From NCBI GenBank assembly GCA_000091205.1, contig AP006483.2: DNA of 64,000 bases. One strand, 5' to 3'. How positions within the stretch are numbered: the first letter of the stretch is position 1; every line of letters starts with the position of its first letter. This document shows positions 5,298-64,000 of this stretch, piece by piece. The notes under the pieces were generated by a model. That model did no database searches. It had not been told where the DNA came from and saw only the letters and a program-made list of their open reading frames with translations. The position numbers were made by a program, and so were the translations under genes. This DNA comes from Cyanidioschyzon merolae. Its lineage: Eukaryota.

Positions 5298-5379
5298 AAG
5301 CGAGATGGCGCAGCGGAAGCGTGATGGGCTCATAACCCATAGGTCCGACCGAACGCTCTTTTGCCACTCGCCTCGCTCC
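5298..5379 (+). tRNA. tRNA-iMet-derived sequence with aberrant T-arm (pseudo-tRNA or tRNA-derived element)
   Basis: AGCGAGA-TG-GCGC-AGCGGAA-GCGT-G-ATGGG-CTCATAA-CCCAT-AGGTC is near-identical to eukaryotic initiator tRNA-Met through acceptor 5' strand, D-arm, anticodon arm (CAT) and variable loop. The following 25 nt do not form a canonical T-arm. A partially complementary acceptor 3' strand (CCTCGCT) followed by CCA is present. Confidence 0.3.
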
Positions 5380-8727: not shown

Positions 8728-11700
8728 TTACCAAGGCACAAAGTCTGCAGGGATGTTCTCGAAAACCCCAATGGTGCCGTCGTGTGCTGCAACGACGACC
8801 ACCAGGCCGTCAGAAGTGGACGTTGCGCGCAGCAGTGCCGCCGTACCAGTTGCAGACGACGACAAGGGCGTTGCTGCTGCTGCTGCTGCTGCTGTTACTG
8901 GTGCTGGTGCTATTTTCGCACGTGTTGGGTAGATGGAAGTGGACGGGCTTCGCTCGATGACGTCCAGTCGATTGGTGCTGCGCTGGGGTGCAAACACCGC
9001 AGCTGTAACGTGCGCTTCACCGAACGGCATGAAGGCCTCGAAACGGTCGTTACGGTAACGACGAATACGAGGCAGTTGACTCGAACTGGTACCGTCGCGG
9101 CTTGTGCCTGCTGCTGCGCTGCTGGACGGATTCGAGGTCAATGCGGATGCGGATGCCCGTTCCGACAGCATACGGTCTGGATAGTACTGCTGCTCGGTAC
9201 GGGCCGCATTCGTCGTGCTACTCGGGTTGTTGGTGTTGGTAATGGGCCCTGAGTGCCGCGTCTGCGGGTTACTCGCAAGTGCCGCTGACGCTTCGGGTGC
9301 CATTTCATGAGCTGCAGCAGCGGTGCCGCCACCTGCGTCACGCAACCGGGGCGTGCCTTTCGACCACTGGCTTAGGTGCAAGGCACAACCGGGTGCGCTG
9401 TGGTGTCCGGCTTGCTCGTACAGCACCGTATTCCAGATGTAGACGAGCCGATCCTCACTAGCCGTGATCACGTACCGAAAATCGTCACTGAAACTTGCCC
9501 GGATATGGTTCCAAGTACAGGAGTGTCCGACGAACTTGCTTACAATGCGCAAGTCCTGAACCCGATACAACCGTATACGACTGTCGTTGGTGCTGATCAA
9601 TACTTCGTAGTGCTGAGAGCTGTTGCTGCTGCTGCTGCTGCTGCCGGTGTTGCTGCTGCTGTGTGCACTCGGTGCCATGGTCGCTGCAAACTCGTTGCCG
9701 GCGTTCTGTCCAGGTACGAAAACGTTGGAGGTCGTCGACACCGCTGGAGCGGTACTGCCGCTGCCGCTGTTGGTGCCTCGACCAGGGCCTCGATCCGGTG
9801 TTGGCATCATGGCGAAACTGGTGATTTTGCTGCCCTTGCTATTGCGTCCGCGACGACTGTGCACCTCCAGGGTCGTGATGTACTGGAGAGCCCGTTCGCC
9901 CTCCTCGAAACGGACAACGTTGTAGACTTTGCACTCACCGCGATACGTGCCAACGAGCGCCTGCTCGCCGTTGGGTGTAAACCCACAAGCGGTTACGAGG
10001 CCCCGCACTTCTGCATAGTCTGAAACGTGCCGCGAGCTAATGTTCCAGAGACGAATACGCTCGTCCAAAGAGCCACTGAGGAAGAAATTCTCGTTCCGCG
10101 GATGAAAGGCGACACAGGTTACAAAATCGGCATGCAGGAACTTGCGCAACACCTGGTTGTAGTCTACGTGCCAAAGACGCACAGTTTTGTCCATAGAGCT
10201 GGATAAAAGGAAATTATTGGCAGACCACGCGACACAGAGAACGTCACCCCCGTGTCCGCGAAACACTCGATGAGGCTCTCGGACCTCGAATAGACAGCGT
10301 GCGTACAGACGCTCGGGTCCGTCGTCCACGGTGACCGCTGCTCCGTCGCTGCTTTCCGGAGGCGGGGTCAGCAGCCTTTGAAACGCTCGCGCGCCTGCCG
10401 TAGCCGGTGAGCGCAACCAGCTGGCAATCTCCAACAAGTCCGCATTCGAATAATTCAGCGTGTGCGGCTCGTTCTGCACTTTCCAAACCATGATCACGGC
10501 GTCTTGACCGCCAGTCGCCAGATATCGACCATCGGCAGAGAATTCCATACTCCAGACAGGTCCTGTGTGCGGCCTGAAGCACTGTACCAGACACATGTTG
10601 GCGGTGGTGTTAGCTCCTCGCGACTTGTTCGGAGCATGGACGCGCACAAAGCGCTGTGCAACACGGAATTCCCGAAGCAGCCGTTGGTACTCGCGCTTGT
10701 TCAAAGCGCTACCCTTTTCAGGGAACTTGAATAGAAAGCGCGGCCTACCGAGTACGGTCGTGTCCTCAGTGATAGCGCGTTGCGTCGCTGTACTGGCAGT
10801 AGCTGGTGCGGCGGCTTTTGTAAGCAGGCCCCGGTCGAGGCTGCCCGCGGGTGACCGAAAATCCTCGACTGTGTCGTCGACTACGGAGCCGAACGCTTTT
10901 CCATCGCCAGCGAGCGGCGTCTCTGCGGCCGCACCGGCGGTTGATGTCAGCGATGTGAGCGAGTCTGCACCGGCTTGCACTCGCTGTGTATTGAGCATTG
11001 CACCGTCTTGCCTGGTGCGGGTCGCTGCCGACTTGCTGTGCTGCAAAGCCGCGGCTTGTGTCGAGGATATCGAGGGCGACGCATGCGTCGGTGCTGTTTT
11101 CGCGCGCGGTAATAATGAAAATGCTCGAATTCGCCCCAGTGGCGTCGAGGAAAAGGTACGTGAACGGCGACTTTTCGTACCGGAGCTTGCGCCCGTCGGA
11201 TCGTCCTGGTGGGGGTCACGACGCTGCATGACGGAACGTTGTCGCCGCATCAGTTGCTGCACTGTATCCGCGGAAGTCATCTGGGCAACTTCCTGCTCAG
11301 TGAGATACCGTTCTTCACCGGTATCCAAGTTCTTAATAAGAAATTCTACACCCTGCTGCGGCTTCCTCGAATCACCCGCGGATCGCTCTCTCATCCGAGT
11401 GATCACTTGAAACCCAGCTTGATCCACTTCAGCAGTACCGAACTCTAGAAGCAGATCTCGTCGACTCGAATCCGGAGACGGTTTGCGCAGTGGCTGGGTT
11501 AGCCTGTGCAGCAAACTGCGTCCCGACTCTGGGGCAGTGCTGAGGCGGCCCCTCAGGTCCGTGTCACCACCTGCACTGGTGCCGATTGGTGCAGCTAAAC
11601 TGCCGCTTCCGCTCCTTTCGAAAGCCGGCGGGTACGTGGCGTCATCGACACTGCGGCTGCGATGCCGCTGACCGGTGCTGGAACCCGAGCGCTGATGCTC

Positions 11701-12168
11701 CGGGTGCCTTGCACGCGTCTCCGAAACTATACTGGTCCGTTTGGGAAGGTTTTTCCCGACGAAGCCTCGAACGGAAGAGAGGAAGCCGCGGAAGCTCAAC
11801 CACGAGGAGTCCGAAGCAGGTACATCGGAGCTGGAGCCCACCTCACCGAGTGAATGTCGGGCAGCAGCTGGTCCAGCGATGTCACTAGTTGATACAACGG
11901 CACCGCCAGTGCCTCTTTCGATTTCCGATACCAACGACTTGCAGTCAAGGGGTGCGGGATCCACTTCTGTGGTCTCTTGCGGAGTGGCAGCCAGGTCGAG
12001 TGCGCTACCGTAGGAGCGCAGTGACGAATAACTCATTTCAGGAAGCGCAGAGCCCCGGGAGATACGCTCAGGGCTCGAGTCAAAGCTCTCTGTTCCCGTA
12101 CGCGATCTTGAATCACTCGCGTCACTGCCGATACGTACATAACGCCCAGAGAGCGTCTTTTGATTCAT
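8728..12168 (-). CDS. WD40-repeat protein, WDR44 (rabphilin-11)-like
   Basis: WD40 block HTGPVWSMEFSADGRYLATGGQDAVIMVWKV...FRGHGGDVLCVAWSANNFLLSSSMDKTVRLWHVDYNQVLRKFLHADFVTCVAFHPRNENFFLSGSLDERIRLWNI... matches WDR44 family repeats. Long low-complexity N-terminus. TAA stop at 8728-8730. Confidence 0.75.
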   Translation of the reverse strand: MNQKTLSGRYVRIGSDASDSRSRTGTESFDSSPERISRGSALPEMSYSSLRSYGSALDLAATPQETTEVDPAPLDCKSLVSEIERGTGGAVVSTSDIAGPAAARHSLGEVGSSSDVPASDSSWLSFRGFLSSVRGFVGKNLPKRTSIVSETRARHPEHQRSGSSTGQRHRSRSVDDATYPPAFERSGSGSLAAPIGTSAGGDTDLRGRLSTAPESGRSLLHRLTQPLRKPSPDSSRRDLLLEFGTAEVDQAGFQVITRMRERSAGDSRKPQQGVEFLIKNLDTGEERYLTEQEVAQMTSADTVQQLMRRQRSVMQRRDPHQDDPTGASSGTKSRRSRTFSSTPLGRIRAFSLLPRAKTAPTHASPSISSTQAAALQHSKSAATRTRQDGAMLNTQRVQAGADSLTSLTSTAGAAAETPLAGDGKAFGSVVDDTVEDFRSPAGSLDRGLLTKAAAPATASTATQRAITEDTTVLGRPRFLFKFPEKGSALNKREYQRLLREFRVAQRFVRVHAPNKSRGANTTANMCLVQCFRPHTGPVWSMEFSADGRYLATGGQDAVIMVWKVQNEPHTLNYSNADLLEIASWLRSPATAGARAFQRLLTPPPESSDGAAVTVDDGPERLYARCLFEVREPHRVFRGHGGDVLCVAWSANNFLLSSSMDKTVRLWHVDYNQVLRKFLHADFVTCVAFHPRNENFFLSGSLDERIRLWNISSRHVSDYAEVRGLVTACGFTPNGEQALVGTYRGECKVYNVVRFEEGERALQYITTLEVHSRRGRNSKGSKITSFAMMPTPDRGPGRGTNSGSGSTAPAVSTTSNVFVPGQNAGNEFAATMAPSAHSSSNTGSSSSSSNSSQHYEVLISTNDSRIRLYRVQDLRIVSKFVGHSCTWNHIRASFSDDFRYVITASEDRLVYIWNTVLYEQAGHHSAPGCALHLSQWSKGTPRLRDAGGGTAAAAHEMAPEASAALASNPQTRHSGPITNTNNPSSTTNAARTEQQYYPDRMLSERASASALTSNPSSSAAAGTSRDGTSSSQLPRIRRYRNDRFEAFMPFGEAHVTAAVFAPQRSTNRLDVIERSPSTSIYPTRAKIAPAPVTAAAAAAATPLSSSATGTAALLRATSTSDGLVVVVAAHDGTIGVFENIPADFVPW

Positions 12169-12282: not shown

Positions 12283-12689
12283 CGGTTCGCAAGCCTTGCA
12301 CGCTCCACTGAAAGCAACCTTGTCCGCGCCACGACAAGCTCACCCGCTTTTCCACCTGCAATAAGTGCACTGGAGCTCCTCAGGAAGCTCAGGTTCCTGG
12401 AATTTTACTCGTACAAACGAGTTTCTTACGATCCGCGTTGACTCGTTCCGTTGGCGTCGCACGAGCACTAGTGCCAGCTCGCAAAGCAAAACACCCCTGA
12501 CCGGAATGACGACACTCGGGCGCCACTGGCCTGTCTCCAGCAAGCTTCGCAAGAAGCCACTGACCACAGACTGATAAAGTGCGTTAACGAAAACTTACCT
12601 CGACGGAAGCAGGCACCGCTAAGGGAGTAAAGAGCGCGTTCCTCCGAGCTACAAAGGCAGCTCACTGGTGTCGACGTCGAAACCCGTAC

Positions 12690-12852
12690 AAAAACTCCAG
12701 TATCTAACCAGTAGGTTCTGCAACTGCTTCCCTGCGCACAAGTCGGCGCGATAGAGCACGCCACACCGATCGCCTGCTTATCGATGCACCGACGTGCACA
12801 AGTCTCCCAGTCTTTTTGACCGGCTCCCTGTTACCGGTTTCAACTTGTTCTT
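12690..12852 (-). ncRNA. Candidate omega-RNA scaffold region: conserved tail immediately 3' of the Fanzor-like ORF
   Basis: Sequence downstream of the stop stays alignable between the two copies (e.g. gacgtgcacaagtctccc vs gatgtgcagacgccccc; caactgcttccctgcgcacaagtcggcgcg vs gaacgcttctcaaacgacgaacgtcgccgcc). Homology decays near 12700. Contains the local hairpin TGCAC-GTCG-GTGCA. By analogy with TnpB omega-RNAs overlapping the ORF 3' end. Confidence 0.3.
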
Positions 12853-15042
12853 CTACGTTTCTACCTTGAGAGGCTGACCGACAAAGTTGTCTCTCGTCAG
12901 TTCCAGGAGTCTCTTCTCCAGCACGGCATAGCTCTTTATATTGATAGAAGCACTAAAGTCTCGGTTCACGCACTCCAGGCGTTTCTCGTCGCCGCTTGTA
13001 CTCACCAGTGCAGGGAGTCCTCGAACCTGTGCCCTGCTTTCCATTTCCTGCCCTTCCGTCACCGCTCCGTACTTTTGGATATCCCCAGGGCTCCTTTGGC
13101 ACTTTTCCATCTCAACCCTCTGAAGTGTACACCCTAGCTCGTGATGAATGGATGACGTTCCGAACGCATTTATCAGTATCGAAACGAAAAGGTGTGCGCA
13201 GTCCTTGTACGCTCGTGTCGACGGAGCTGGTATACAACCTTTTGTGGACGCCCAGCGTCCTGATCCGTATGCTAATACGAGCATTTTACGCTTGTCCTCC
13301 TTGAGGGCCCTCAACTCATTGAAGAACTTGTCAAATGCACGCTGCTTTCCTCTGTGCAGACGCATATGCAGACGAGCCCATCTGGTCTTGGTGTACTGTT
13401 GCCACAGCGCCTCCCAATGAGCAGTACAAACTTTCATGAATTCCAGAAAAGCCTCAAAGTCCGCTCCTCGGCTAGTCACCTCGCTCAAAGCTTCCAGGTG
13501 CTCTTTCACTCCTCGATTCTATTCCTTAATTTTTTCCTCGCGTTCATTTTTCCGGATTCTCGATCGTATCTTGCTCTCGAGAAATTTAAAAGACACATGT
13601 CTTCTGACGTAAGCTGCCGTCAGTGCCATCTTCCGCACGCTTGGGTGCTGCGATGGTCATGATATTCGTGTCCCCAGGGTCCGCGCCAACGACATTGTCG
13701 TTCTCCTGGACCTCCTGCATCACAGGATCCGCCTCGTATATATGTTCATGTTTCGTCGCGGGCGAAGCCGGGGACGGAACTGGACGATCTACCTTCAAGC
13801 ACTTATAATCTACAAATATGGCTACTCCATCACTTTTGATCATCCCAGGGAATAACTTTTGCTTGCTCACTTTGAGGCGTTCGAAATCGAACATATTCTT
13901 CCAGTACGTCTCCCGGTTTTCACCGGAGAACTCGAAATTCCTTACATCGAACTCTGGACTGATCTCCTTCATGATGCCATGAAGGACGCTCGAGTCGATT
14001 GCCACAATATCTGACTTGACGGTGCACAACGGAGCGACATGGAAGCGCTTACCCATTAGGGCAGCCTCCCGTCTCTCCGACTCTTCATTTTTTCCCCACT
14101 CAGCTTCATCTCTGCCTTGCGTTCGAGTTCTCGGTCCAAAAACACAAAATACCGTAGAATGAGGCGATAGTATCTTTCCGTATCCTTTTTCAACTCTGAT
14201 ATCTTTTCTACTGGATTCGCTAGCCCCAGTACCGCACGACGCTCTTGAATAGACGCACGGATTCCAGAAGCTTCATTCCTTCTCATGTGTGATGTCTTCT
14301 TGTCTACGGATTCGATCCTCTGTTCATTCTCCCTATCGTTCGTGATGCCATCGATGGTGACCCATCTCGCCCTGTGAGGCAGGGCCGCCTATAATGCAAA
14401 CGCGGTGCGTATCATGAAACGTTCGAGGTTCATAGTCATATCGCTCATCAGGTACGTGGGGTACTTCATCGCTCCGTAGGTGCGAATTCGCCAGTCTCCC
14501 CTCTATCGAGTACCGTTGAGGCGGTATTCGGCGTACTTTTTGTGCAGTATACACACTCGCGCATTTTTCGTCGACATATCCCAGGTGCTTACCATCCGGT
14601 AGCGTATAACGGTCTCGTTGAAAAATTCCTCCGGAACCTCGACTTTTTTGGTGTCCGTCACGTTGTTGTATATCTCTTTTACCAAATGCACTAGTACTGG
14701 AAAAGCCTTTACAATACTCAAGGAGTACGACTCGACACGGTTTCCGATGGCCTCTCGCAACTTCTGCTTGTACGGATCCTTGATACATCCAAGAAAACGA
14801 GCTTTCACTACCATCTCGTCGTACTGTCGTCTTTGATGCAGGCATAGACGTCTGGGATCCTGTCTCAGCTTCTTGGACGTGTCTTGTTCCTCTTTGCTCG
14901 GCACTGTTCTCCGTTTTCTTCCGGCAGCCGGTGACACCAGGCCTCCAGGATCCTCTACTTCCTTCTCCACAACTTGCCTTTTTTCTATAATTTTAGATTG
15001 AATGCTCTTTGAACGCCTCTGCTGTAAACAGTGTAAAATCAC
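12853..15042 (-). pseudogene. Fanzor/TnpB-like RNA-guided RuvC endonuclease gene (~730 codons), interrupted by 2 in-frame TAG codons and 3 frameshift points
   Basis: Segments 15042-14503, 14286-14056 (same frame, TAGs at 14503-14505 and 14389-14391), 14056-13586 (frame change at an A6 run near 14075) and 13509-12853. RuvC-I NVVGADPGDTNIMTIAAP (Asp 13679-13681). TS/Zn-ribbon remnant SSIHHELGCTLQRVEMEKCQ. RuvC-III ECVNRDFSASINIKSYAVLEKR (Asp 12958-12960), the hallmark xRDxNAAxNI of TnpB/Fanzor. Confidence 0.6.
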
Positions 15043-16020
15043 TTGAATTCACTAACTTGAGGGTCGAAGCATAAGTGAACTGAAAACTATACTTTGTTAT
15101 GACTTGAATGTAAATACAAGTTGTGCGTTAGACACCAAGTCAACGAATGATCAGGATCGCATATCCCTTCAATGCCGAGATGCTCGTCGCGTCTGATGCC
15201 TCCAAGATGCGGAAATGCGCTAACCGACCGGACTATATAGAGCAAAGAACAGAAACGAACCATTAAATAGCAACGAGATGGCAATTTCTTTCCCCTCTAC
15301 GGTAAACGTTAGAAAATGGCAAACGCTTTCCGTATAATCGAATGTCTACAGGTGGCATGTCCCGCGTGCCGGACGAGTCTGCAGGGCTAATGCTTCGTGC
15401 TCGCCCCAGTGGCAGATGCTTTATTGAGACCTGCGCAACTCGTCCGAAACGCTGCTTATTCTGGGACTAGGAGCGGCTAGCTTGCATCTGGGCATCGCGC
15501 TTGTCTCAGCGGACTCCTCGTGTATTCCTTCGCGCTGCCGCATGCAGTAGATCTGTCTGAACAGATTCCAAGCCCCCAGAATAATAATGAATCGCGACCC
15601 GGTATCGCGCTAGCCACGCCTCGAGCCAACGTCATCACTCGCATGGTAAAAACGATCTATCTCCGTGATGCTTGTGCTCCAGCGGCATAGGCGCTCCTGC
15701 AGGTACAGCACGACAGGCACTCGGCGCTCGATCGAACGCACAAAACGAATTGTATATCCGAAAAGAAGTATAGGTCATGCAACTTGGAGAAAGGATGCAG
15801 CAGCACGATGTACGCCTCCTCGAAAGCCAATATCCATCCAATCCGCAACCTGAAATCCAAGGTCAACGGACACTTTTCAGCCATCGACAGAATTCCCGCT
15901 GCGCTACGCCGCGCGTACCCGCAGGCTGCGCGCAGGCGCCCCGTTTCCAATCGATTCGAGCGTTTTCAAACGCAGTGCTCCGTATAGGCACGAGTTCCAG
16001 CGCCAAAAGTGCGTGATAGA

Positions 16021-48642: not shown

Positions 48643-49751
48643 GTCTAGTCTCGTCTACTCCAGGCTAGGCAACACAGAAAGCACACACATGGCTAGCTTT
48701 ACTGTGAATCCAACGGACTCGTGTACCGGTCAGCTGTGACATCTGGACAGTTCCTGGTCTCTCCGCTGCTGCGCTCCTTCTATTCGCGTTTGTTTTCAAC
48801 TCCGCCTACCTAAAGCGTCCATTCCAAGCCGAGCGCTCGACGCCAGCATACGCAACAAATACCGTACCACTTTTGAACAGTATCATAGCGTCGAGGCTTG
48901 CAAACGAAGACAAGCGCTGCATCCAGCGGCTGCGCACGCAGTCGACGCGCTCTGAGCCTACGGAACACGTCAACGCTGCACGTGCGGAAGGTCCTGCTCG
49001 TTCCTCGTCCGAGCAGACGAGTTACCAAAGCGCTCAGGGTTTCGATGACGCTCCAGCTACGCGCGTTTACTCCAGAGTGATACAATTACTAGCGCGCCAA
49101 GTCGGCTGAGTAGCCTCGTTACAACGATTCTACTCTGCTCTGACCGCGAAAAGCTTATGCTGGATGTGCATACTCCGCCAAGTCATACGCTAAGCGTAAC
49201 GAAGAAGTTGCTTCTTCCCTCGGGGCAAACGTATGCGCCCAGACTGAGAGCTCTCGCGACGTCCGCACCTCACGTCAGGATTCGGAGCCGGTTCAGCTCG
49301 GATCGACGCGCCAGCACAATGCCAAAAAGTTCTGTCTGCACAGGTTTAGGCCACAACATTGAAAGTACAACGCATTTCAGTTCGTTGCAGTGCAGTTTCG
49401 AAGACAACAAGGCGTGCCTGCGGTAGTCCCAGTGGAGTCATACGCTGCGAACTTGCCACTGCGGGGAAACCGCACCATATGACCATTGCGCAGCAGTGGT
49501 GCTCTCGGCGAAGCGTTCACGGGAAACTTGCTGGAGTCGGGGTCTCGGAACACTTCCAGGAAGCCTGCTGAACAAGCGACTCACCCTCGATCTATACCAG
49601 GGAAGCAGCCTAGGCGAACCGCTGTGTCCGACACACACACACACGTAAAGACTGGCAAAGGTTGTTCCGGAGCTCGTGTCTTCGCAGTCGTACAAACGGC
49701 TCGCGCCGTCGAACGAGGCTTCCAAGAAAGCGCGTACGCAGCTGTTCCGCA

Positions 49752-52700
49752 ATGCCGCTTCCGTCAGCACAGACGCGTCGCTTTATTAAAAGAGCAAGAG
49801 GTGCTGGTGCCACTGGGCAGGCCTCGGTGCTCCGCGTCTCCCGGGAGCACTACTTGCGGAGTGATCTACCGCTGCCTCCGGAGCCAGCCCTGCGGCCGTT
49901 TCTCTTGGTACCCGACACGAACGTAGTGCTGCGTGCAGCGAGCCTTTTCGAACTCGATGCCGTCCAGGAGGTTGTCTTTTTGCAGACCGTGCTGCAGGAG
50001 ACCCGCAAACAAAGTCCAGAGACCTACGATCGCATACGGCGACTGTTAGCTTCCCCGGAAGCGAAGCGCCGACACCTCTACCTCTTCAGCAATGAACACT
50101 GTGCAGCAACGTTCTCGGAGCCACTAAAGGGTGAGTCACCAAACGACTACTACGACCGGCTGATTCGCAAGTCTGTGGCGTGGTTGAATACTCAGTACAA
50201 CGCACTGCAGGGGCCGCGAGTGGTGCTCCTCACCGAGGATCGCGAGAACGCTCGTCGAGCCAGAGACGATGATCATCTGGTTACCTTCAGCCTCGCGCAA
50301 GTGGATGCATGGTGTGCGGGCGCTGCAGACACGCGAGTTAGGGACCTAGTGGCAGACTCTGGCGGTCACCATGATGCAGCACTGAACGAAAGCGCTTCGG
50401 AAAAAGCGCATGCAGCACCTGCGTCCAGGACGGAGTCTGCGCCCTACCCGGAGTACTGGCCAGTCGACAAGGTTGAACGCGCGCTCGCCAGTGGTAAACT
50501 GTTCCGTGGCGTATTTCGTGCAACCATGTATGAGCCGTTGGAGAGCGGTGTAGTGGTCATTCGGTCGCCAGCGGGAAATGCGGAGCCCCAGAAGACACAG
50601 GTCGCCACACAAGTGCAGCCAGCGCTGCGCATTCGGGTCCAGGGCGCTGCCGCCGTGAATCGTAGCGTTGACGGAGACCTCGTCGCTGTGCTACCACTGG
50701 ACGGCGTTGTCGACGGAGCAGCCAGTGCTGGTCGAAATGCGATACCGACCATCGACGCAGACGCCTTCAGTAGCGTGACAGAGCAGGTGGTGACAGCTGC
50801 CTCTGCACTGGGATCCGAGTCCTCGGATCCGCTGGCTTCGACGCCTTCCCAGGGGCCTCGTCTTGGGAAGATTGTTGCAGTGCTTGAGCGCCGTTGGCGT
50901 GCGCAGTACTGTGGATCGCTGCAGGCCAAATACACCGCAGATACATTGAGTTTCCAAGGTCGCAGACGACACCTCTTTTTGCCGGTGGATCGGCGGATAC
51001 CCCCGATCCTACTGGAGACACTGCAGGCAGCGTCTCTCTACGGCAAGCGGGTGGCTGTTGCTCTTGATCGCTGGGATACCCAATCGCGTTTCCCGGTTGG
51101 TCATGTGGTCAGCGTGCTGGGGCGCATTGGCGATGAGCAAGTCGAAACGCAGGTTTTGCTTCTGGAGAACGGCATTGTGACCCGACCGTTTTCGGAGGCG
51201 GCGCTAGCGTGTCTGCCTCCACCAGACTTTTCCGTTGCGCCTGCCCCGATGGATACCACGCTGGTTGGTCGCCTCGATTTGCGGTCTATGTTTGTTTTCA
51301 GTATCGACCCACCGGGGTGCACCGACATCGACGATGCGTTGCACTGCCGCCTCGTGGATCGGAGCAATGGACAGGGAGCAAATGCGAGAGCGTCGACTCG
51401 CCTTCAAGTTGGCGTGCATATCGCTGATGTGGCGAGCTTCGTTCGAGCAGGGACAGCACTCGATGAAGAGGCACGGGAGCGTGGCTGCACTGTCTACCTG
51501 GTGGACCAGCGCATCGAGATGCTGCCGGCGCTGCTAACGAGCAACCTGTGCTCGCTGGTTGCGGGCAAGGATCGGTATGCGTTCTCGGTTCTCTTCGAGT
51601 TGGACGTTGAATCTGCCCAGATTAACGATGTCCAGTTTACACGCAGCATGATTAGGTCACGAGCATCGTTGACCTACGAACAGGCTCAGTTGATGCTGGA
51701 TGCATTGGTTGTCGACAAACAGAGCGCGAAGCAACTGGGGATACCGCCCGAGCTAGGCGAAGCGCTGCCGCTTCTAGCCCGCGTTGCAGGAAGACTGCGG
51801 GCTGAACGACTCGCCAATGGTGCGCTCATTCTCGCGTCACCGGAGATCCGTTTCGAGCGAGCGGATGGTGAGAGCCCGAGTCCCAGCGTTGGTTCAGGCT
51901 CCAGTTGTCGCAGTTTTGACACGCACCACCTCGTCGAGGAGTTTATGCTGCTCGCAAATGTGACGGTAGCTAAGCGCATTGTGCACCAGTTTCCGCACTC
52001 GGCGTGCTTGCGCCGACATCCTCCGCCGAGTGTCGAGCAGTTTGAGCCACTGGTACGGGCGGCAGCAGCATACGGAATCGAGATGCACGTGGATTCGTCC
52101 AAGGCGCTTGCGGCAAGTCTCGACGCCGTCTCAACGACCTCAGCTGGCCAAGAGGACCCACTGCTGGAAGAGCTGTTTCGGATGCTTGCAACTCGTTGCA
52201 TGATGCAGGCTGCATACTGCTCCGCTGGCTCGGCTCCTGCGTCATCCTACTACCACTACGGACTCGCAGTGCCGCTGTATACCCATTTCACGTCACCGAT
52301 ACGGCGCTATGCCGACATTATTGTACATCGCCAATTGGCAGCAAGCTTGGGGTATGAGGATGCTCCTGGTGAGTTGCTCATGAATGAGCAAGTCGAACGT
52401 ATCTGTGAACACGTGAACGAACGCTATCGCAATGCACAGGCCGCAGGACGAGCGAGTTCTGCGCTCCATGTGTTGCTCTGGTTCCATCGGCAATGCCAAC
52501 GCCCAGCTCATGAAGCACGCGATACGGCCTCGATGCTAGAGACAGACGGCCGAATTCTGCGATTCTTGTCGACTGGATTTGTGGCGTACCTGCCCAAGTT
52601 TGGTATTGAGGGCGTCGTTCGCGTAGACGGTGCAGAGACCTCCTGGGTATTGAGCCCTGATTCGCAAACGATCCTCCATAAGGACTCGGGAGTGACGTAC

Positions 52701-52898
52701 CGTATTTTGGGCGCTTGTCGTATTCGAATTGTTATTGATGAAAATGCTGTCGGTGCCGATCGTATTCGATTCGAGCTGCTTCCTAGGAACGCCAACAACG
52801 CCGTTCAAAGTCGAACGACGTCGGGCGTGTGCAGTAGTGGCGGCAACCGCGCCCAAGACGAAACGTCTCCTACTGACGTACAGATGCCACCAAAATAA
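49752..52898 (+). CDS. DIS3: Exosome catalytic subunit DIS3/RRP44 (PIN plus RNB exoribonuclease)
   Basis: N-terminal VLRVSREHYLRSD and PIN motif LLVPDTNVVLRAASLFE. RNB core FSIDPPGCTDIDDALHC...VGVHIADVASFV...TVYLVDQRIEMLP. S1-like C-terminus. Met at 49752. Confidence 0.85.
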   Translation: MPLPSAQTRRFIKRARGAGATGQASVLRVSREHYLRSDLPLPPEPALRPFLLVPDTNVVLRAASLFELDAVQEVVFLQTVLQETRKQSPETYDRIRRLLASPEAKRRHLYLFSNEHCAATFSEPLKGESPNDYYDRLIRKSVAWLNTQYNALQGPRVVLLTEDRENARRARDDDHLVTFSLAQVDAWCAGAADTRVRDLVADSGGHHDAALNESASEKAHAAPASRTESAPYPEYWPVDKVERALASGKLFRGVFRATMYEPLESGVVVIRSPAGNAEPQKTQVATQVQPALRIRVQGAAAVNRSVDGDLVAVLPLDGVVDGAASAGRNAIPTIDADAFSSVTEQVVTAASALGSESSDPLASTPSQGPRLGKIVAVLERRWRAQYCGSLQAKYTADTLSFQGRRRHLFLPVDRRIPPILLETLQAASLYGKRVAVALDRWDTQSRFPVGHVVSVLGRIGDEQVETQVLLLENGIVTRPFSEAALACLPPPDFSVAPAPMDTTLVGRLDLRSMFVFSIDPPGCTDIDDALHCRLVDRSNGQGANARASTRLQVGVHIADVASFVRAGTALDEEARERGCTVYLVDQRIEMLPALLTSNLCSLVAGKDRYAFSVLFELDVESAQINDVQFTRSMIRSRASLTYEQAQLMLDALVVDKQSAKQLGIPPELGEALPLLARVAGRLRAERLANGALILASPEIRFERADGESPSPSVGSGSSCRSFDTHHLVEEFMLLANVTVAKRIVHQFPHSACLRRHPPPSVEQFEPLVRAAAAYGIEMHVDSSKALAASLDAVSTTSAGQEDPLLEELFRMLATRCMMQAAYCSAGSAPASSYYHYGLAVPLYTHFTSPIRRYADIIVHRQLAASLGYEDAPGELLMNEQVERICEHVNERYRNAQAAGRASSALHVLLWFHRQCQRPAHEARDTASMLETDGRILRFLSTGFVAYLPKFGIEGVVRVDGAETSWVLSPDSQTILHKDSGVTYRILGACRIRIVIDENAVGADRIRFELLPRNANNAVQSRTTSGVCSSGGNRAQDETSPTDVQMPPK

Positions 52899-53422: not shown

Positions 53423-54483
53423 TTGGTAATGCAGCGTTCGCCTGTAGCGCGCCGGCAGCACGCGCTGCATCTTCGAAAGGGCCCGAAGCAGTCGCAGATC
53501 GCCGTGATCACTGGCGCGTCCTCTGGGGTCGGTCTGTATGCAGCTCGCGCTCTGATCAGCAAGGGCAACTGGCACATCGTCATGGCATGTCGTGACATTG
53601 ATCGGGCGGAACGCGCAGCAAACAGCGTGAACCTTCCAAAGGACGCCTATACAGTGCTGCATTGTGATCTGGATGATTTCGCCTCTGTACTAAAGTTTGT
53701 GAGAGAGCTGTCAAGTGTGGCGCGCATCGATCACCTAGATACCCTGATCTGCAATGCCGCTATCTGGCATCCGCGGGACAAGAAACCGCGTTTCACGGTG
53801 GACGGCATCGAGAAGACCATACAGGTTTGCCATCTGAGCCATTTGCTTCTATGTCGGGAGCTGTTGCCGAAGCTGAAAATATCGCGCGGGCGCATTGTGT
53901 TTCTGACGACTCAGACACACTCGCCGAATTCGCTGCCGGGAAAGATCCCCCCGCAGGCTCGTCTCGGTGATTTGTCTGGTCTAGCCGCGGGGCTTGGTCC
54001 GCAGACGACGGGCATGGTGGACAGTGGCCCGTTTGAGCCCACAAAAGCTTACAAAGACGCCAAAGCCGCGAACGTGTTGACAATGAAGGCGCTCAGTGAT
54101 CGATACGGCCGCGACGGGGTGACCTCTGTGGCGATTTTTCCGGGATGTGTCGCCGACAGCAACCTCTTCCGCGAAAAGCGTGGCTGGTTCCGCTGCGTAT
54201 TCTTTCCGATTCTTCAAAATACATCACTCGGCAATACGTTCCGAATGATGAGGCCGGACGCCGCGTAGCCGAAGTGGCGCCCCAGGGACAGTTCCCGGAC
54301 TCGGACTGGTATTATCAGTGGCGTGGCAAATATACGGAAGGTCGACAGAAGACGAAACCGCAGGTTATTGAACCAACATACGAAATCCACAAGGCAGATC
54401 AGTTTTTCGAACTGAGTCTTGATCTGATCGACCAGGCGTTGCGGCGGCGAGGCCTCAAGTCGACTATCTTGGCCCCTGTCTAA
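53423..54483 (+). CDS. POR: Light-dependent NADPH:protochlorophyllide oxidoreductase (POR), with an apparent +1 frameshift near 54190-54200
   Basis: VITGASSGVGLYAARAL...WHIVMACRD...LDTLICNAAIW...GKIPPQARLGDLSGLAAGLG...MVDSG.FEPTKAYKDAKAANVLTMKAL...FPGCVADSNLFRE, including the POR-specific insertion loop. The C-terminal motif (SKYITRQYV...DSDWYYQW) continues in the next frame after an A4 run. Confidence 0.75.
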
Positions 54484-60007: not shown

Positions 60008-61189
60008 GAAGCAGCGACATCTTGAGCTCCACGGACTGCGTTGGCGGACGTGTCAACTGTTAATTTGCTCACAGTCTAGATCACGTCTATGCTGATACTC
60101 TGTTGCGACAATATTCCACTCATGTTCACAAGACCCGAGAGTACGAATGAACGAATGCGTTAATGCGGATAAATGTGCGCGGAGTGTCATCTGAGGTCCT
60201 CTTCGGGGACTGACATTCAGAGATCAGATGAACAGAAAGAATGGACCAGAATTTGCTTTTGGAACGTAAAGGAATGATTACCTCTGCCTATGAGCTTGCC
60301 CCCGATGATAGCCTTGGTGGTAATGGCGGTATATTGGTACCCTTTCTTCTCTTTGTAGTCAGAATACGGTTTCCGAGTTGCATGTAGCGAGTGTGTCTGC
60401 AGTAGGGCGTCTGGAACTGTTTTTTTAGTTTCGTTGTACTTGAGCACATTCTAGTCCTGAGGAGCGGTTCTGGAGCAAGTTTGACTCGATCCGTACAACC
60501 GCAAATTTCACCAAAATCCGATTCCTCTTGAGGAAAAGCTAATATTCGTGACGCCTGCATACGGGCTCCGGCTCCGCTTGGCACGAATGGAAGCAGGGCC
60601 GCCAGCCTCACAGCGCACTTATAGCTTGTTCTGTCGGTCGAGGCATCGTCTCGATATATTCACCACTGTTGCCTACCGTTGCTCGTAGGCTACGTCAATA
60701 AAACCGTCTGAAGTGTTGTGCTGATTTCCGGATTATGTTTATGTCTTGTACACTAGAAAAAAAACGAGAACGAAGTGGTGGTAAGCCGTGAAGACGTAGA
60801 TGCGCAGTTACCGTTACTCGGTCCAGAGGCACACCATGCCAGGCAGTCACATCCTGGGACGAGCTGTACGCTATGTAAGCATTAGCACAGCACCTTGAGC
60901 ACAGCTGGAGGCATTCTAGAAGCGGCCAGTATCGATTCTAAACAATTGATCTTGTTCTATATCATTGCAAACAAATTGGTAAACGGATCCGTTGCTAATA
61001 AATGGACACAGGGCCCTCGGAAGATAGATAAACGACAAGGCAGCTGATGATGTATCGAATACAGAAGAACTCGAGTTGCCCATTTTCCACATTTTCTGTC
61101 ACATCAGTCCTGTTACAGCCATGGCAGCGATATCTTCACGAAAAGCATCAACTATTACCACATATACTCTAGGTACTCTTCGCAAATAC

Positions 61190-61370
61190 GGTCTGAATAA
61201 GCGACGTAACGCGCCCGCACCGAACGCTTCTCAAACGACGAACGTCGCCGCCGGCCGTGTACGGTAGTGGAGGGAAAACCGCGCCTTGGACAAATCGTCT
61301 CCAACTGATGTGCAGACGCCCCCCGCCTTTCTCGACGAGCCACCCACTACTGCTTCCAACTTCTTCTCAT
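61190..61370 (-). ncRNA. Candidate omega-RNA scaffold region of copy 2 (homologous to 12690-12852)
   Basis: Conserved with the copy-1 3' tail. Contains the local hairpin CGTCT-N13-AGACG. In copy 2 this region is also open in the protein frame to a TGA at 61231. Confidence 0.25.
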
Positions 61371-63559
61371 ATAGTTCGACTTTGAGAGGTTGTCCAATAA
61401 AATCCTCTTGTGTCCACTCTGGAGGTCGTTTCTCCAGCACCGCACATCTCCGTATATTGATAGCGGCATGAAAATCTCGGTTCACGAACTCCATACATTT
61501 CGTGCCGTTGGGAGCTGTACTCACCAATACGAGTAACCCTTGAACTTTCGCCTTCCTTTCCATTTGCTCCTCCGCCAGCGGTCCGTACTTTTGCAATTTC
61601 CTCAGCGCTCTTCTGGCACTTTTCCATCTCCACCCTCTGAAGCGTGCAGCCCAGTTCTTGGTATGTATAGGACGTCCGGAACTCATATACAGGTATCGTA
61701 ACGAGACGCCGGGCGCACTCCTTGTACAGCTTCGTCGCTGGAGCTGGCGTAGTTCCTTTTCTGTTCTTCCAGCGCCCTGCTCCATACGCTTCTACGAGCC
61801 TCTGACGGTCATCCCCCTCAAAGGCGCTCAACTGATTGAAAAAATTCGCAAACGCCCGCTGCTTCACACCGTATAGATTCATTCGCAGACGAGCCCACCG
61901 GGGCTTTCTATACTCCTCCCACAGCGCATCCCAATGGGCAACACGAAATTCCATGAATTTCCGAAAAGCTTCATGGACCGCTCCGCGGCTCGTCGCCTCG
62001 CTCAAAGCTTCCAGGTGATGCTTTATTCCTGCATTCCACGTAACGATTATCATCCTTGCATTCACTACAACGGATTCTCGATAGTATCTCGCTCTCGAGA
62101 ATCTCAGCAGACGCATGTCTTTCTGGCGTAAATTACCGTCCATGCCATCTTCCGCACGCTTCGGTGCTGCGATGGTGATGATATTCGTGTTCCCAGGATC
62201 CGCGCCAACCACAATGTCTTTATCCTGCACTTCCTGTGTGGCAGGATCCGCCTCTTTCTTTCCTTGATGCTTCGTCGCGTCAACCATAAAGTCGTTATCC
62301 TGCACATTCTGTTCGGCAGGATCCGCCTCCTTCTGACCTTCATCCTTCACCGCGCCAACGACACGGTCGTTATCCTGCACTTTCTGCATCACAGGTTCCG
62401 CCTCTTTCTCTTTTTCATCCTTCACCGCGTCAGCGACAAAGTCGTCATCCTGCACCTCCTGTGTCGCAGGATCCGCTTCTTTGATTTTTTAATGCTTCGC
62501 AGAGGGCGAAGCGAAAGGCACAATCGGACGGTCCACTTTCAAGCGCCGATAGTGTACATACAAGGTTACTCCATCGGTCTCGATCAACGCAGTGAATACC
62601 TTTTGGCTTCTCACTTTGAGCCGTTTGAAATTGTAGATGTTCTTCAAGTACGTCGCCCGGTTTTCACCGGTGAAGTCATCCCTGCTAACAGTGAACACTG
62701 GACTGATCTCCTTCATGATGCCGTAAAACACGTCCGAATCGATATTCACGAAATGTGACTTGATGCTGCACATTGGAACCACGTTGAAGCGCTTACCCAT
62801 TAGGACAGCCTTCCGTCTCTCCCAATCTTCTTTTTTTTCTTCACTCAGCTTCATCTCCGCATTTCGCTCGAGTTCTCGGTCCAGAAACACGAAATAGCGC
62901 AGAATAAGACGATAGTATCTTTCCTTATCTTTTTTCAACTCTGATGTCTTGTATGTTGGATTCGCCGGCCCCAAGATTGCACGGTGCTCTTGTATAACCG
63001 AATGGATTACAGAAGTATCATTCGTGCTGTCGTTAAACGCCTTCGTGTCGACGAATTCGACATCACCTTCATGCTTGCGATCGTTCTTGATGCCATTGAT
63101 AATCACCTATACTCCTTTGCGAGAGACGCCCGGGTAAAGTGCAAACACGGCGCGTATCATGAAACGTTCTAGGTTCATTGTCAAATGGTTCGTCAGGTTC
63201 GTGAGGTTCTTCATCTCCCCATAGTCGTAAATACTCCGGTCCCCCTTGTATCGAGTACCCTCGAAGCCGTAAAAGGGATGTTTTTCGTGGAGGGCATGAA
63301 CCCGCTCGTTTTCCTCCCGCGCTTCCACTGTTGCAAGCATCAGGTATCGAATAAAGGTCTCGTCGAATAACTCGTCCAGAATCTCGACCGTTTCCATGTA
63401 CGTCACGTCGCGATACATATCCCTCGCAAAATGCATCAGCCCTGACCATGCCTTGATAATACTCTTGGAGTACGAGTCGACACGTTTTTCGATAGCGTCT
63501 CGCAAATTTTCCCTGTAAGGATGCTTGATATGATTAAGAAGACAGGCTTTCACCATCAT
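61231..63559 (-). pseudogene. Fanzor/TnpB-like RuvC endonuclease gene, copy 2: in-frame TAG (63107-63109) and TAA (62489-62491), frameshift between the Zn-ribbon remnant and RuvC-III, degenerate N-terminus
   Basis: RuvC-I IVVGADPGNTNIITIAAP. TS/Zn remnant YEFRTSYTYQELGCTLQRVEMEKCQ. RuvC-III FVNRDFHAAINIRRCAVLEKR sits in a different frame from the upstream core. Stops align with sense codons in copy 1. Confidence 0.6.
62193..62487 (-). repeat. 4 x 75-bp tandem repeat inside Fanzor-like copy 2, encoding 25-aa units that duplicate the RuvC-I beta-strand region
   Basis: atcctgcac recurs at 62222, 62297, 62372 and 62447 (75-bp period). Units encode KIKEADPATQEVQDDDFVADAVKDE / KEKEAEPVMQKVQDNDRVVGAVKDE / GQKEADPAEQNVQDNDFMVDATKHQ / GKKEADPATQEVQDKDIVVGADPGN. 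Copy 1 has a single unit. Confidence 0.75.
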
Positions 63560-64000
63560 CTCATTCTACAGTCATCTTTCCCGCCGCCTTCGACCTAGGG
63601 CCTCCCGCTTTCGGTTCTTCTTCTTTTCCTGTTCTTCTGGACTCGGCTCTGTTTTTTGTTTTTATTTCTGGCAGCAGGCGACACTGGGCCTCCGGGATCG
63701 TCGACTTGCTTTTTCATAGCTTTTCTTTTCATTTTTTTGTGTGAAAAAGAACGCTCTTTGAACCCTTCTATTATATACTGCGAGAAATCAATTGAATATG
63801 TTTACTTGAGGGTTGAGACACAATCGAACTGGAAACTATGATTTGTTACGACTTCCACGCAAATACAGCTTGCCCGTTAGAACATCAAGAAAACGTGTCG
63901 TCACGGTCGCGTTTCTCTTCGAAGGCGACAGATGCGTCGTGTCTCGCAAGTGCCATACTTGGAGATGCACGTATCGAGCGCGCCATACAGGAAAAAGGAC

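Follow-up and report, generated by a model that had tools for sequence, protein, structure and literature searches.

Where does a Fanzor gene of Cyanidioschyzon merolae end, and what lies between its stop codon and the end of the mobile element that carries it? The question is raised by a window of 64,000 nucleotides of C. merolae DNA (contig AP006483.2 of assembly GCA_000091205.1; "the window" is the whole stretch analyzed). An earlier note had drawn attention to positions 12690-12852, downstream of one of two Fanzor-like open reading frames (ORFs), as a candidate omega-RNA (ωRNA) scaffold and element right end. Both ORFs are dead copies of a high-copy Fanzor1 element of ~3 kb, and the element family fits CMe-1A of Bao & Jurka 2013, judging by its published description. 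Intact elements carry a 29-codon extension of the ORF followed by ~62 non-coding nt, and their last ~100 nt are most likely the Fanzor ωRNA scaffold, a reading that we hold with a probability of roughly 60%. The sequences to look at in the window are the end of the second copy (61216-61325) and an ORF-less solo unit (52790-52893); the interval flagged in the note is what remains of coding sequence in a pseudogene that has been truncated.

Anatomy of the element tail

What does the end of the element look like across the family? The tails of 58 non-redundant copies were aligned over a span that opens 90 nt ahead of the codons for ...GQPLKVE and closes 700 nt past them. Per-column identity stays at 80-99% over ~150 nt after KVE and then falls abruptly to ~25%, so the tail length of ~150 nt given in the earlier note is right for the family. 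The consensus ORF runs on for 29 further codons past KVE (LYEKKLEAVVGGRSKKTGRRLHVSWRRFV) and then reaches a TAG. A stop at codon +29 is the commonest arrangement (15/58 copies), 11 more copies stop at +23 to +30, and 6/58 (10%) are open beyond +30 (L001, L005, L018, L057_4382, L059 and the second copy in the window). The extension is coding, because its variation is protein-like and biased to third positions: nucleotide diversity (pi) at codon positions 1, 2 and 3 is 0.19, 0.17 and 0.26 (position 3 above positions 1 and 2, p=0.02), and the corresponding values for the upstream ORF are 0.14, 0.11 and 0.26 (p=1e-25). Within the extension, the first 15 codons show this bias more clearly than the last 14. 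Distant homologs (~30% identical) end ~20 residues earlier, which marks the last part of the extension as lineage-specific. Its basic composition suggests that the extension may serve as a nuclear-localization or nucleic-acid-binding tail.

Between the stop and the sharp right end lie ~62 non-coding nt. The stop TAG is itself part of a small stem, AGAC(G)-N3-5-(C)GTCT, and lies within its 3' arm. Then come, in order, the GGCG...CGCC stem, the near-invariant box (CGCCACTACTGTACAC) and, reaching the element end, a terminal stem-loop of 11-17 bp. The 16-nt box has a pi of at most 0.2, below first and second codon positions, while the stem arms and loops of the non-coding part are variable (pi of 0.4-0.7). 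A conserved region of the ωRNA type, which begins at the ORF's 3' end and stops sharply at the right end, is found in the family as a whole, in the second copy in the window and in the solo unit, and not in the first copy. The landmarks near which a predicted ωRNA would start and past which it would run into the flank are as follows.

Tail positions 45-55: GGAGGCGTCTGCACG...
Element right end: ...GGCGTTGNTGG

The terminal hairpin is a property of individual copies. When copies are folded singly, nearly all form the 11-17 bp hairpin, with a mean z-score of -1.9 compared with +0.3 for a coding control. The sense strand is more stable than the antisense strand in 41 of 45 copies, the mean difference being -5.3 kcal/mol, and G-U makes up 20% of the pairs in the terminal stem. 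The strand bias of the hairpin fits a sense-strand RNA or a structure in top-strand single-stranded DNA (ssDNA) better than a symmetric DNA palindrome. Two stem sub-variants keep the hairpin in different registers, ...GTTCGA/TCGAAC... (TTCGA) and ...GTTTTTC/GAAAGGC... (TTTTTC). A pair count in a fixed register of the MAFFT alignment finds 74% of cells paired, compared with 38-52% when the partners are slid.

Some copies depart from this plan. An in-frame TAG lies 15 codons upstream of KVE in 11/58 copies (e.g., L024, L029, L007, L023, L050, L060 and L082), at a hypervariable codon (W/L/S/P/R/*) in ...RPPE-x-TREN..., whose equivalent in the window is at ~61414-61416. The 45 codons downstream of this shared TAG still look conserved and coding. 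Possible causes are readthrough, recurrent mutation and the existence of a subfamily whose protein is shorter. In some copies (L008, L073 and L064), the 3' arm of the terminal hairpin is replaced from tail position ~132 by a shared sequence, ...AGGTTTGC..., which suggests an alternative right end rather than random truncation.

The module in the window

Which parts of the window carry the module? The relevant features, all on the minus strand, are the second copy of the element (copy 2) with its flank, and the solo unit.

61372-63945, minus strand: copy 2 Fanzor1 pseudogene and core 5' region, the 5' region being cut by the window end
61286-61371, minus strand: what is left of the copy 2 C-terminal extension, 1 nt being deleted near profile position 52
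61216-61325, minus strand: candidate ωRNA scaffold module of copy 2 (covariance model R1, 73.5 bits, E=7e-17)
61196-61217, minus strand: flank beyond the copy 2 right end, where family conservation collapses
52790-52893, minus strand: solo module with no Fanzor ORF (covariance model R1, 92.9 bits, E=1e-21; nhmmer, E=8e-21)

Copy 2 has a broken ORF, with two in-frame stops and a frameshift near 61610, and it nonetheless matches the entire ~150-nt tail profile (61371-61220, E=1e-36, nhmmer). Its module contains the last ~12 codons, the stop position, GGCG..C(T)CC, the box as CTCCACTACCGTACAC (61257-61272) and a degenerate terminal hairpin, and folds at -35.6 kcal/mol. The earlier note had observed that the protein frame stays open through the copy 2 tail. 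This is correct as far as 61231, and comes about only through the 1-nt deletion, which leads out of the family frame, and a family stop codon that reads CAA (~61286-61288). The right end, placed by that note at ~61190, maps to ~61218-61220 instead. If the module is an ωRNA scaffold, the flank at 61196-61217 would be the guide; the guide of SpuFz1 is 14-15 nt long (PMC10432273).

The solo unit is the best-preserved module in the window, ahead of copy 2. It spans tail positions ~50-148, has its right end at ~52792, and folds at -46.8 kcal/mol with a 12-bp terminal stem. Its start near tail position 50 is a hint that the functional unit begins there, overlapping the last ~12 codons. The unit lies between a POR-like gene (53423-54268, plus strand) and a DIS3/RNase II-like ORF (49662-52898, plus strand), and the mechanical reading frame of the latter runs into the unit at its 3' end. 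The same unit occurs in two environmental contigs (L050:1068-1175 and L055:921-1028), with the same upstream junction and a homologous POR flank adjoining, and in both a full Fanzor element follows it. The solo unit may be a remnant or a ghost element, or may have arisen through deletion between two direct copies of the module; when such a deletion, from an arrangement like that in L050 and L055, was considered, the downstream flanks gave no match. Within the window, an ωRNA could come only from the decayed copy 2 or the solo unit, and the Fanzor that it served would have to be provided in trans by an intact copy at another place in the genome. The covariance model built from the copies, as the earlier note had suggested, finds copy 2 and the solo unit and gives 7.2 bits for the first copy.

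Rfam offers no known family for the region, with no match in 61150-61450 at E<=1. The whole window, searched against Rfam at gathering thresholds, yields a single borderline tRNA at 5299-5366 on the plus strand (29.6 bits, gathering threshold 29).

The protein and its element family

Is the protein a Fanzor? The host proteins beside the elements are exact matches to BAM78816.1 and BAM78817.1 of C. merolae 10D. Two related minus-strand segments, 12832-15194 and 61348-63944, are ~73% identical (blastn). Each contains a broken ORF in which the motifs VVGADPGNTNI, (D)EFRTSYT and NRDFxAAINI are recognizable, and both are pseudogenes, since each has stops and frameshifts. A profile of 15 family proteins matches three solved Fanzor1 structures in PDB: SpuFz1 (8gkh, E=4.5e-9, profile positions 268-628), Parasitella Fz1 (9cf0, E=5.2e-9) and Guillardia Fz1 (9cer, E=1e-3). 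This bears out the description of the ORFs as Fanzor-like, and by profile similarity the family belongs to Fanzor1. The RuvC motifs DPG, DEFRTS and NRD align with the Fanzor1 structures in these matches, and the family consensus has the split RuvC triad D...E...D (VVGADPGNTNI, VDEFRTSYT and FVNRDFNAAINI), aligned to the SpuFz1 motifs. The assignment is reached only via the profile, because single sequences matched nothing: ORF pieces and full homologs found no match in Pfam or NCBIfam, and neither did a single-sequence search of PDB. The precomputed Pfam assignment of the family protein is DUF8286, and is weak. Between the TS motif and RD, the zinc-finger region reads THHELGC-x11-C, which contains two His plus two Cys and lacks CxxC pairs. 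An AlphaFold2 model of one family protein (P0001), made from the 15-sequence alignment, has a pLDDT of 48.

Just 5' of RuvC-I, some copies contain 75-nt in-frame tandem repeats (25 aa, ...KHEEKKEADPATQEVQDNDFVVDA...), found in copy 2 at 62200-62500 on the minus strand. Their number varies: there is one in the first copy (13681-13760), four in copy 2 and up to six in P0011.

The element is already known, because its features match those of the published CMe-1A, for which ~150 copies, ~80% identity, a length of ~3 kb, no terminal inverted repeats (TIRs) and a 5' region of 635 bp in common with TE-N2_CMe were reported (PMC3627910). The family shares with CMe-1A the host, a length of ~3.1-3.2 kb, copies that are ~70-80% identical, a single Fanzor1 ORF, the lack of TIRs, and a 5' region (~630-690 nt) with the behavior of an element in its own right. 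The length of ~3.1-3.2 kb follows from homology in the first copy, which runs ~690 nt upstream of the ORF, to ~15870-15890. No TIRs were found in the family, and the right end has no inverted partner at the left end. Bao & Jurka noted that some copies of CMe-1A are still intact and that its target-site duplications (TSDs) could not be determined (PMC3627910). What differs is the 3' end: no 3' RNA, right-end hairpin or C-terminal extension is described in the 2013 paper (PMC3627910), and a literature search found no description of an ωRNA for CMe-1A or C. merolae. Relatives are abundant in environmental contigs of C. merolae, with at least 600 pattern matches and at least 370 confirmed by tblastn, both counts from the metagenome contigs being lower bounds.

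What is the function of the non-coding module?

Tail anatomy, boundary, coding signal, strand-biased hairpin and Fanzor1 homology are direct observations. How might a module with these features work? A transcript running through the right end would be processed, the Fanzor would bind the structured module (~12 codons plus the non-coding part, ~100 nt), and 15-20 nt of flank just past the element end would serve as the guide. Transcription, processing, protein binding and guide use are all predicted. We favor the ωRNA reading because of the Fanzor1 protein, the position of the module and its sharp boundary, the sense-specific structure, the absence of a TIR partner and the existence of the solo unit. 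The proposal of an ωRNA scaffold at the element right end has support at the level of the family, with its sharp boundary, ~62 non-coding nt and sense-specific hairpin, and has none at the coordinates in the first copy for which it was made.

Several observations weigh against an ωRNA. The mean pi of the non-coding part is 0.32, which is not below that of third codon positions (0.26), because the loops and stem arms vary. RNAalifold, applied to a 238-column MAFFT alignment of the tail, finds almost no consensus structure (4 pairs, -0.87 kcal/mol). On the structure-blind MAFFT alignment, covariation shows no excess (0.116 compared with 0.127 in shuffles). An alignment of 68 distinct sequences refitted to model R1 gives 0.163 compared with 0.119 in shuffles, with 0/500 shuffles as high; such an alignment leans to its own model. 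Covariation thus depends on the choice of alignment. Nominal p-values overstate the support, because the copies are related to one another. The CGCC segment could pair either in the local GGCG/CGCC stem or in a long-range helix, with about equal support for each, and ~20% of non-redundant copies, with variant or truncated ends, lack part or all of the terminal hairpin. Model R1 has no match in the 3' flanks of distant homologs. The protein family does not have the canonical CxxC...CxxC zinc finger. Finally, no clear motif that could be a target-adjacent motif (TAM) or other target-site pattern is seen at the left end among at least three 5' contexts.

The features of the right end could also be explained by a DNA-level transposition signal, as in single-strand transposons with hairpin ends (IS200/IS605, IS91, Helitron and Replitron), in which case any RNA would be incidental. 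The mobilizing transposase would then recognize or cut the hairpin and the box. The family has no TIRs, no TSD is evident in the 12 paired element ends compared, and the hairpin, being strand-specific and located at the extreme end, is also compatible with a hairpin in top-strand ssDNA. Moreover, the invariant 16-nt box resembles a protein-binding site, and the module can persist without the ORF. We nevertheless consider this explanation rather unlikely. No HUH/Y1 or other ssDNA transposase is seen near any copy, the left end has no hairpin of strength comparable to that of the right end, and the 20% of stem pairs that are G-U would be weaker as G-T in DNA. The explanation is further weakened because DDE_3 (IS630/Tc1-like), which acts on double-stranded inverted repeats and not on a one-sided hairpin, is the only transposase found with relatives of the element. 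A DNA signal and an ωRNA are compatible, since the same IS200/IS605 right end does both jobs. Indeed, the lack of TIRs and evident TSDs, together with a strand-specific terminal hairpin beside an invariant box, raises the speculative and doubtful idea that CMe-1A moves via a single-stranded, hairpin-guided intermediate like IS200/IS605, that the right-end module is both a transposition signal and an ωRNA scaffold, and that a solo module may be used in trans by an intact Fanzor.

If the module does act as RNA, it might simply be the Fanzor mRNA's 3' untranslated region, serving termination, polyadenylation or stability and having no role as a guide. This would fit its place, which is immediately past the family stop and on the sense strand, and its sense-specific stems. 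We think this improbable, however, because conservation ends exactly at the repeat boundary, the solo unit exists away from any ORF, the box is more conserved than the codon positions that determine amino acids, and in every tested Fanzor or TnpB system the ωRNA comes from this region. It is far less probable still that the whole ~150-nt tail is a coding C-terminal extension and nothing more, the alternative that the earlier note itself had offered. That alternative holds for the first 87 nt, which are coding in the consensus, have the third-position bias and include all of the homology in the first copy; in addition, some predicted proteins read to +52 or +66 codons (P0006 and P0028). It does not hold for the ~62 nt past the stop, given the clustering of stops at +29 and at +23 to +30. 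There, diversity is blocky, following stems, loops and box, with no 3-nt period, and the copies that read through do so in differing frames.

Two other interpretations of the right end were considered and rejected. The terminal hairpin is not a repeated target site, since there are no free-standing hairpins in the window and ~80% of copies carry the hairpin. "ACTG|TA" in the box is not a Tc1-like terminus, since hairpin-less copies still share 8-10 nt beyond it and it has no inverted partner at the left end.

The first copy

What, then, is the sequence at 12690-12852? It belongs in part to the first copy of the element (copy 1, 12788-15890, minus strand), the features of which, with the adjoining DNA, are listed below.

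12853-15042, minus strand: Fanzor1 pseudogene of copy 1, broken by frameshifts and an in-frame stop and lacking the catalytic Glu
12853-12855, minus strand: premature TAG, a mutated Tyr codon (KVET*KNKLKPVTGSRSK in copy 1, KVELYEKKLEAVVGGRSK in the family)
12788-12852, minus strand: remnant of ~codons 3-24 of the 29-codon extension, from the nhmmer tail profile
12690-12787, no strand: no detectable family homology; upstream region of a WD40/Rab11-binding-like gene (8728-12168)
15195-15885, minus strand: copy 1 5' non-ORF region, which fits the TE-N2_CMe-like 5' part of CMe-1A (PMC3627910)

The copy 1 ORF has two frame changes and one in-frame stop, and the catalytic Glu is lost (NAFGTSS, compared with DEFRTSY in the family). 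The TAG at 12853-12855 had been aligned with a Tyr codon of copy 2, and the family as a whole agrees, reading ...KVE-L-Y-E-K-K... at this point. The similarity between the copies had also been described as continuing for ~150 bp past this stop; it does so for ~65 nt (12788-12852), and the distal part is no better than shuffled sequence. The tail profile matches only 12851-12788 (profile positions 5-69, E=7e-8, nhmmer), and a local alignment of 12852-12788 with 61371-61300 of copy 2 scores above shuffles (p ~0.006); similarity between the copies in blastn stops at 12832/61348. Beyond this point, 12787-12640 compares with copy 2 (p=0.38) and with the solo unit (p=0.43) as shuffled sequence does, a profile restricted to the distal half of the tail is without a match in 12640-12787 even at E<=100, and blastn of the distal part against ~90 family loci finds no relative. 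The covariance model has to delete 83 of its own 105 positions to accommodate copy 1 (E=2.5). Pairwise, profile, blastn and covariance-model comparisons are all negative for 12640-12787, which was for this reason rejected both as a tail that has diverged and as a variant of the right end.

By these sequence comparisons, copy 1 is either 3'-truncated or decayed beyond recognition at 12690-12787. It has lost the non-coding module: the stop-codon hairpin, the conserved box and the terminal hairpin are all absent. Because the structured module is missing, ~12700, proposed as the end of copy 1, does not mark a mapped end of the element, and the flank past it does not qualify as a candidate guide; 12690-12787 lies outside the recognizable element. 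At its other end, copy 1 begins at ~15870-15890, where blastn to family loci extends to 15868-15887. The whole of copy 1 (12788-15890) lies between the WD40 gene and CKS1 in 10/10 environmental contigs with identical CKS1 (L084-L093), and no empty site was found among these 10 strains. The same broken ORF pieces occur at the orthologous site in all 10 contigs, which, with the shared position, marks copy 1 as an old, fixed insertion.

Left end and transposases

Where is the left end of the mobile unit? The core common to all 5' subfamilies starts at ~15255, ~55 nt upstream of ...GACACGACGCG. The left-end consensus, ...GATTTTTTTCGATGACAAAACG, is fuzzy and mostly follows a pyrimidine. The Fanzor core is joined to at least three unrelated 5' regions, one of which alone corresponds to the TE-N2-like 635 bp; examples of the three contexts are L039, L055, L050, L082 and L007, then W1, L019 and L023, and then L064 and L009. 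Given this joining of one core to at least three 5' regions, the true left end is uncertain.

Some relatives lie close to a transposase gene. Two distant Fanzor homologs (~30% identical) each lie immediately downstream of a DDE_3 gene that shares their strand (L094:588-1466 and L095:81-1001). In C. merolae contigs, DDE_3 remnants (L043:4215-4658, L046:8064-8507, L082:73-795 and, on the minus strand, L065:6270-5796) adjoin TE-N2-like left ends or lie just upstream of a Fanzor tail. Because DDE_3 genes or their remnants neighbor Fanzor relatives, CMe-1A, an unclassified family, may derive from a transposon with both DDE_3 and Fanzor. The two distant homologs also have in common a non-coding block ~110-170 nt past the Fanzor stop (ATACrCGATGA...GGTGT..CAC...GAGTGTA; L094:3560-3620 and L095:3100-3160), after which similarity fades. 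This block, seen in only these two sequences, may be their own right-end or ωRNA region.

Comparison with known systems and implications

How does the predicted module compare with known guide-RNA systems? Fanzor ωRNAs have a structured 3' end next to a variable flank (PMC10432273, PMC10530073). The GtFz1 ωRNA overlaps 17 C-terminal codons (PMC10432273), compared with ~12 in the CMe-1A module. The SpuFz1 ωRNA was shown experimentally (PMC10432273), whereas that of CMe-1A is predicted and likened to it by layout. Copies of the ωRNA region with no ORF, like the solo unit at 52790-52893, are known as ghost loci in Spizellomyces punctatus (PMC10432273). The ghost loci keep both ends, whereas the solo unit is a right-end piece only; likewise, Spu-1 has 30-nt inverted repeats at both ends, which its ghost loci retain (PMC10432273), and CMe-1A is without TIRs. 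The TnpB systems of ISDra2 and IS200/IS605 (OMEGA) have the same arrangement as that proposed here, with the 3' end of the nuclease gene and the right end encoding the scaffold and the guide coming from the flank. CMe-1A differs from them in its eukaryotic host, in that no Y1 TnpA was found and its relatives occur with DDE_3, and in that no TAM is defined. In Chlamydomonas, the fRNA of CrFNuc-1 is a conserved structured RNA at the 3' untranslated region and right end, with conservation extending into the coding region, and the genome contains extra stand-alone copies of the RNA region (PMC10530073); the predicted module of CMe-1A resembles it in these respects. The Chlamydomonas elements are of the Helitron2 type, with asymmetric terminal repeats (PMC10530073), and a Helitron affiliation has no support for CMe-1A.

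What would the module mean for the organism and the family? C. merolae is amenable to genetic work, it has very few introns, and its growth conditions are ~42-45 °C and low pH. What is newly proposed is a predicted ωRNA module for the already known CMe-1A Fanzor1 family, an idea that is plausible at the family level. If it is true, C. merolae carries a native Fanzor1-ωRNA pair. There would then be a defined scaffold of ~100 nt, together with candidate guides, with which a compact and possibly heat- and acid-tolerant editor could be tested. The pair would also help to explain why the ORF has been retained in an old "non-autonomous" family.

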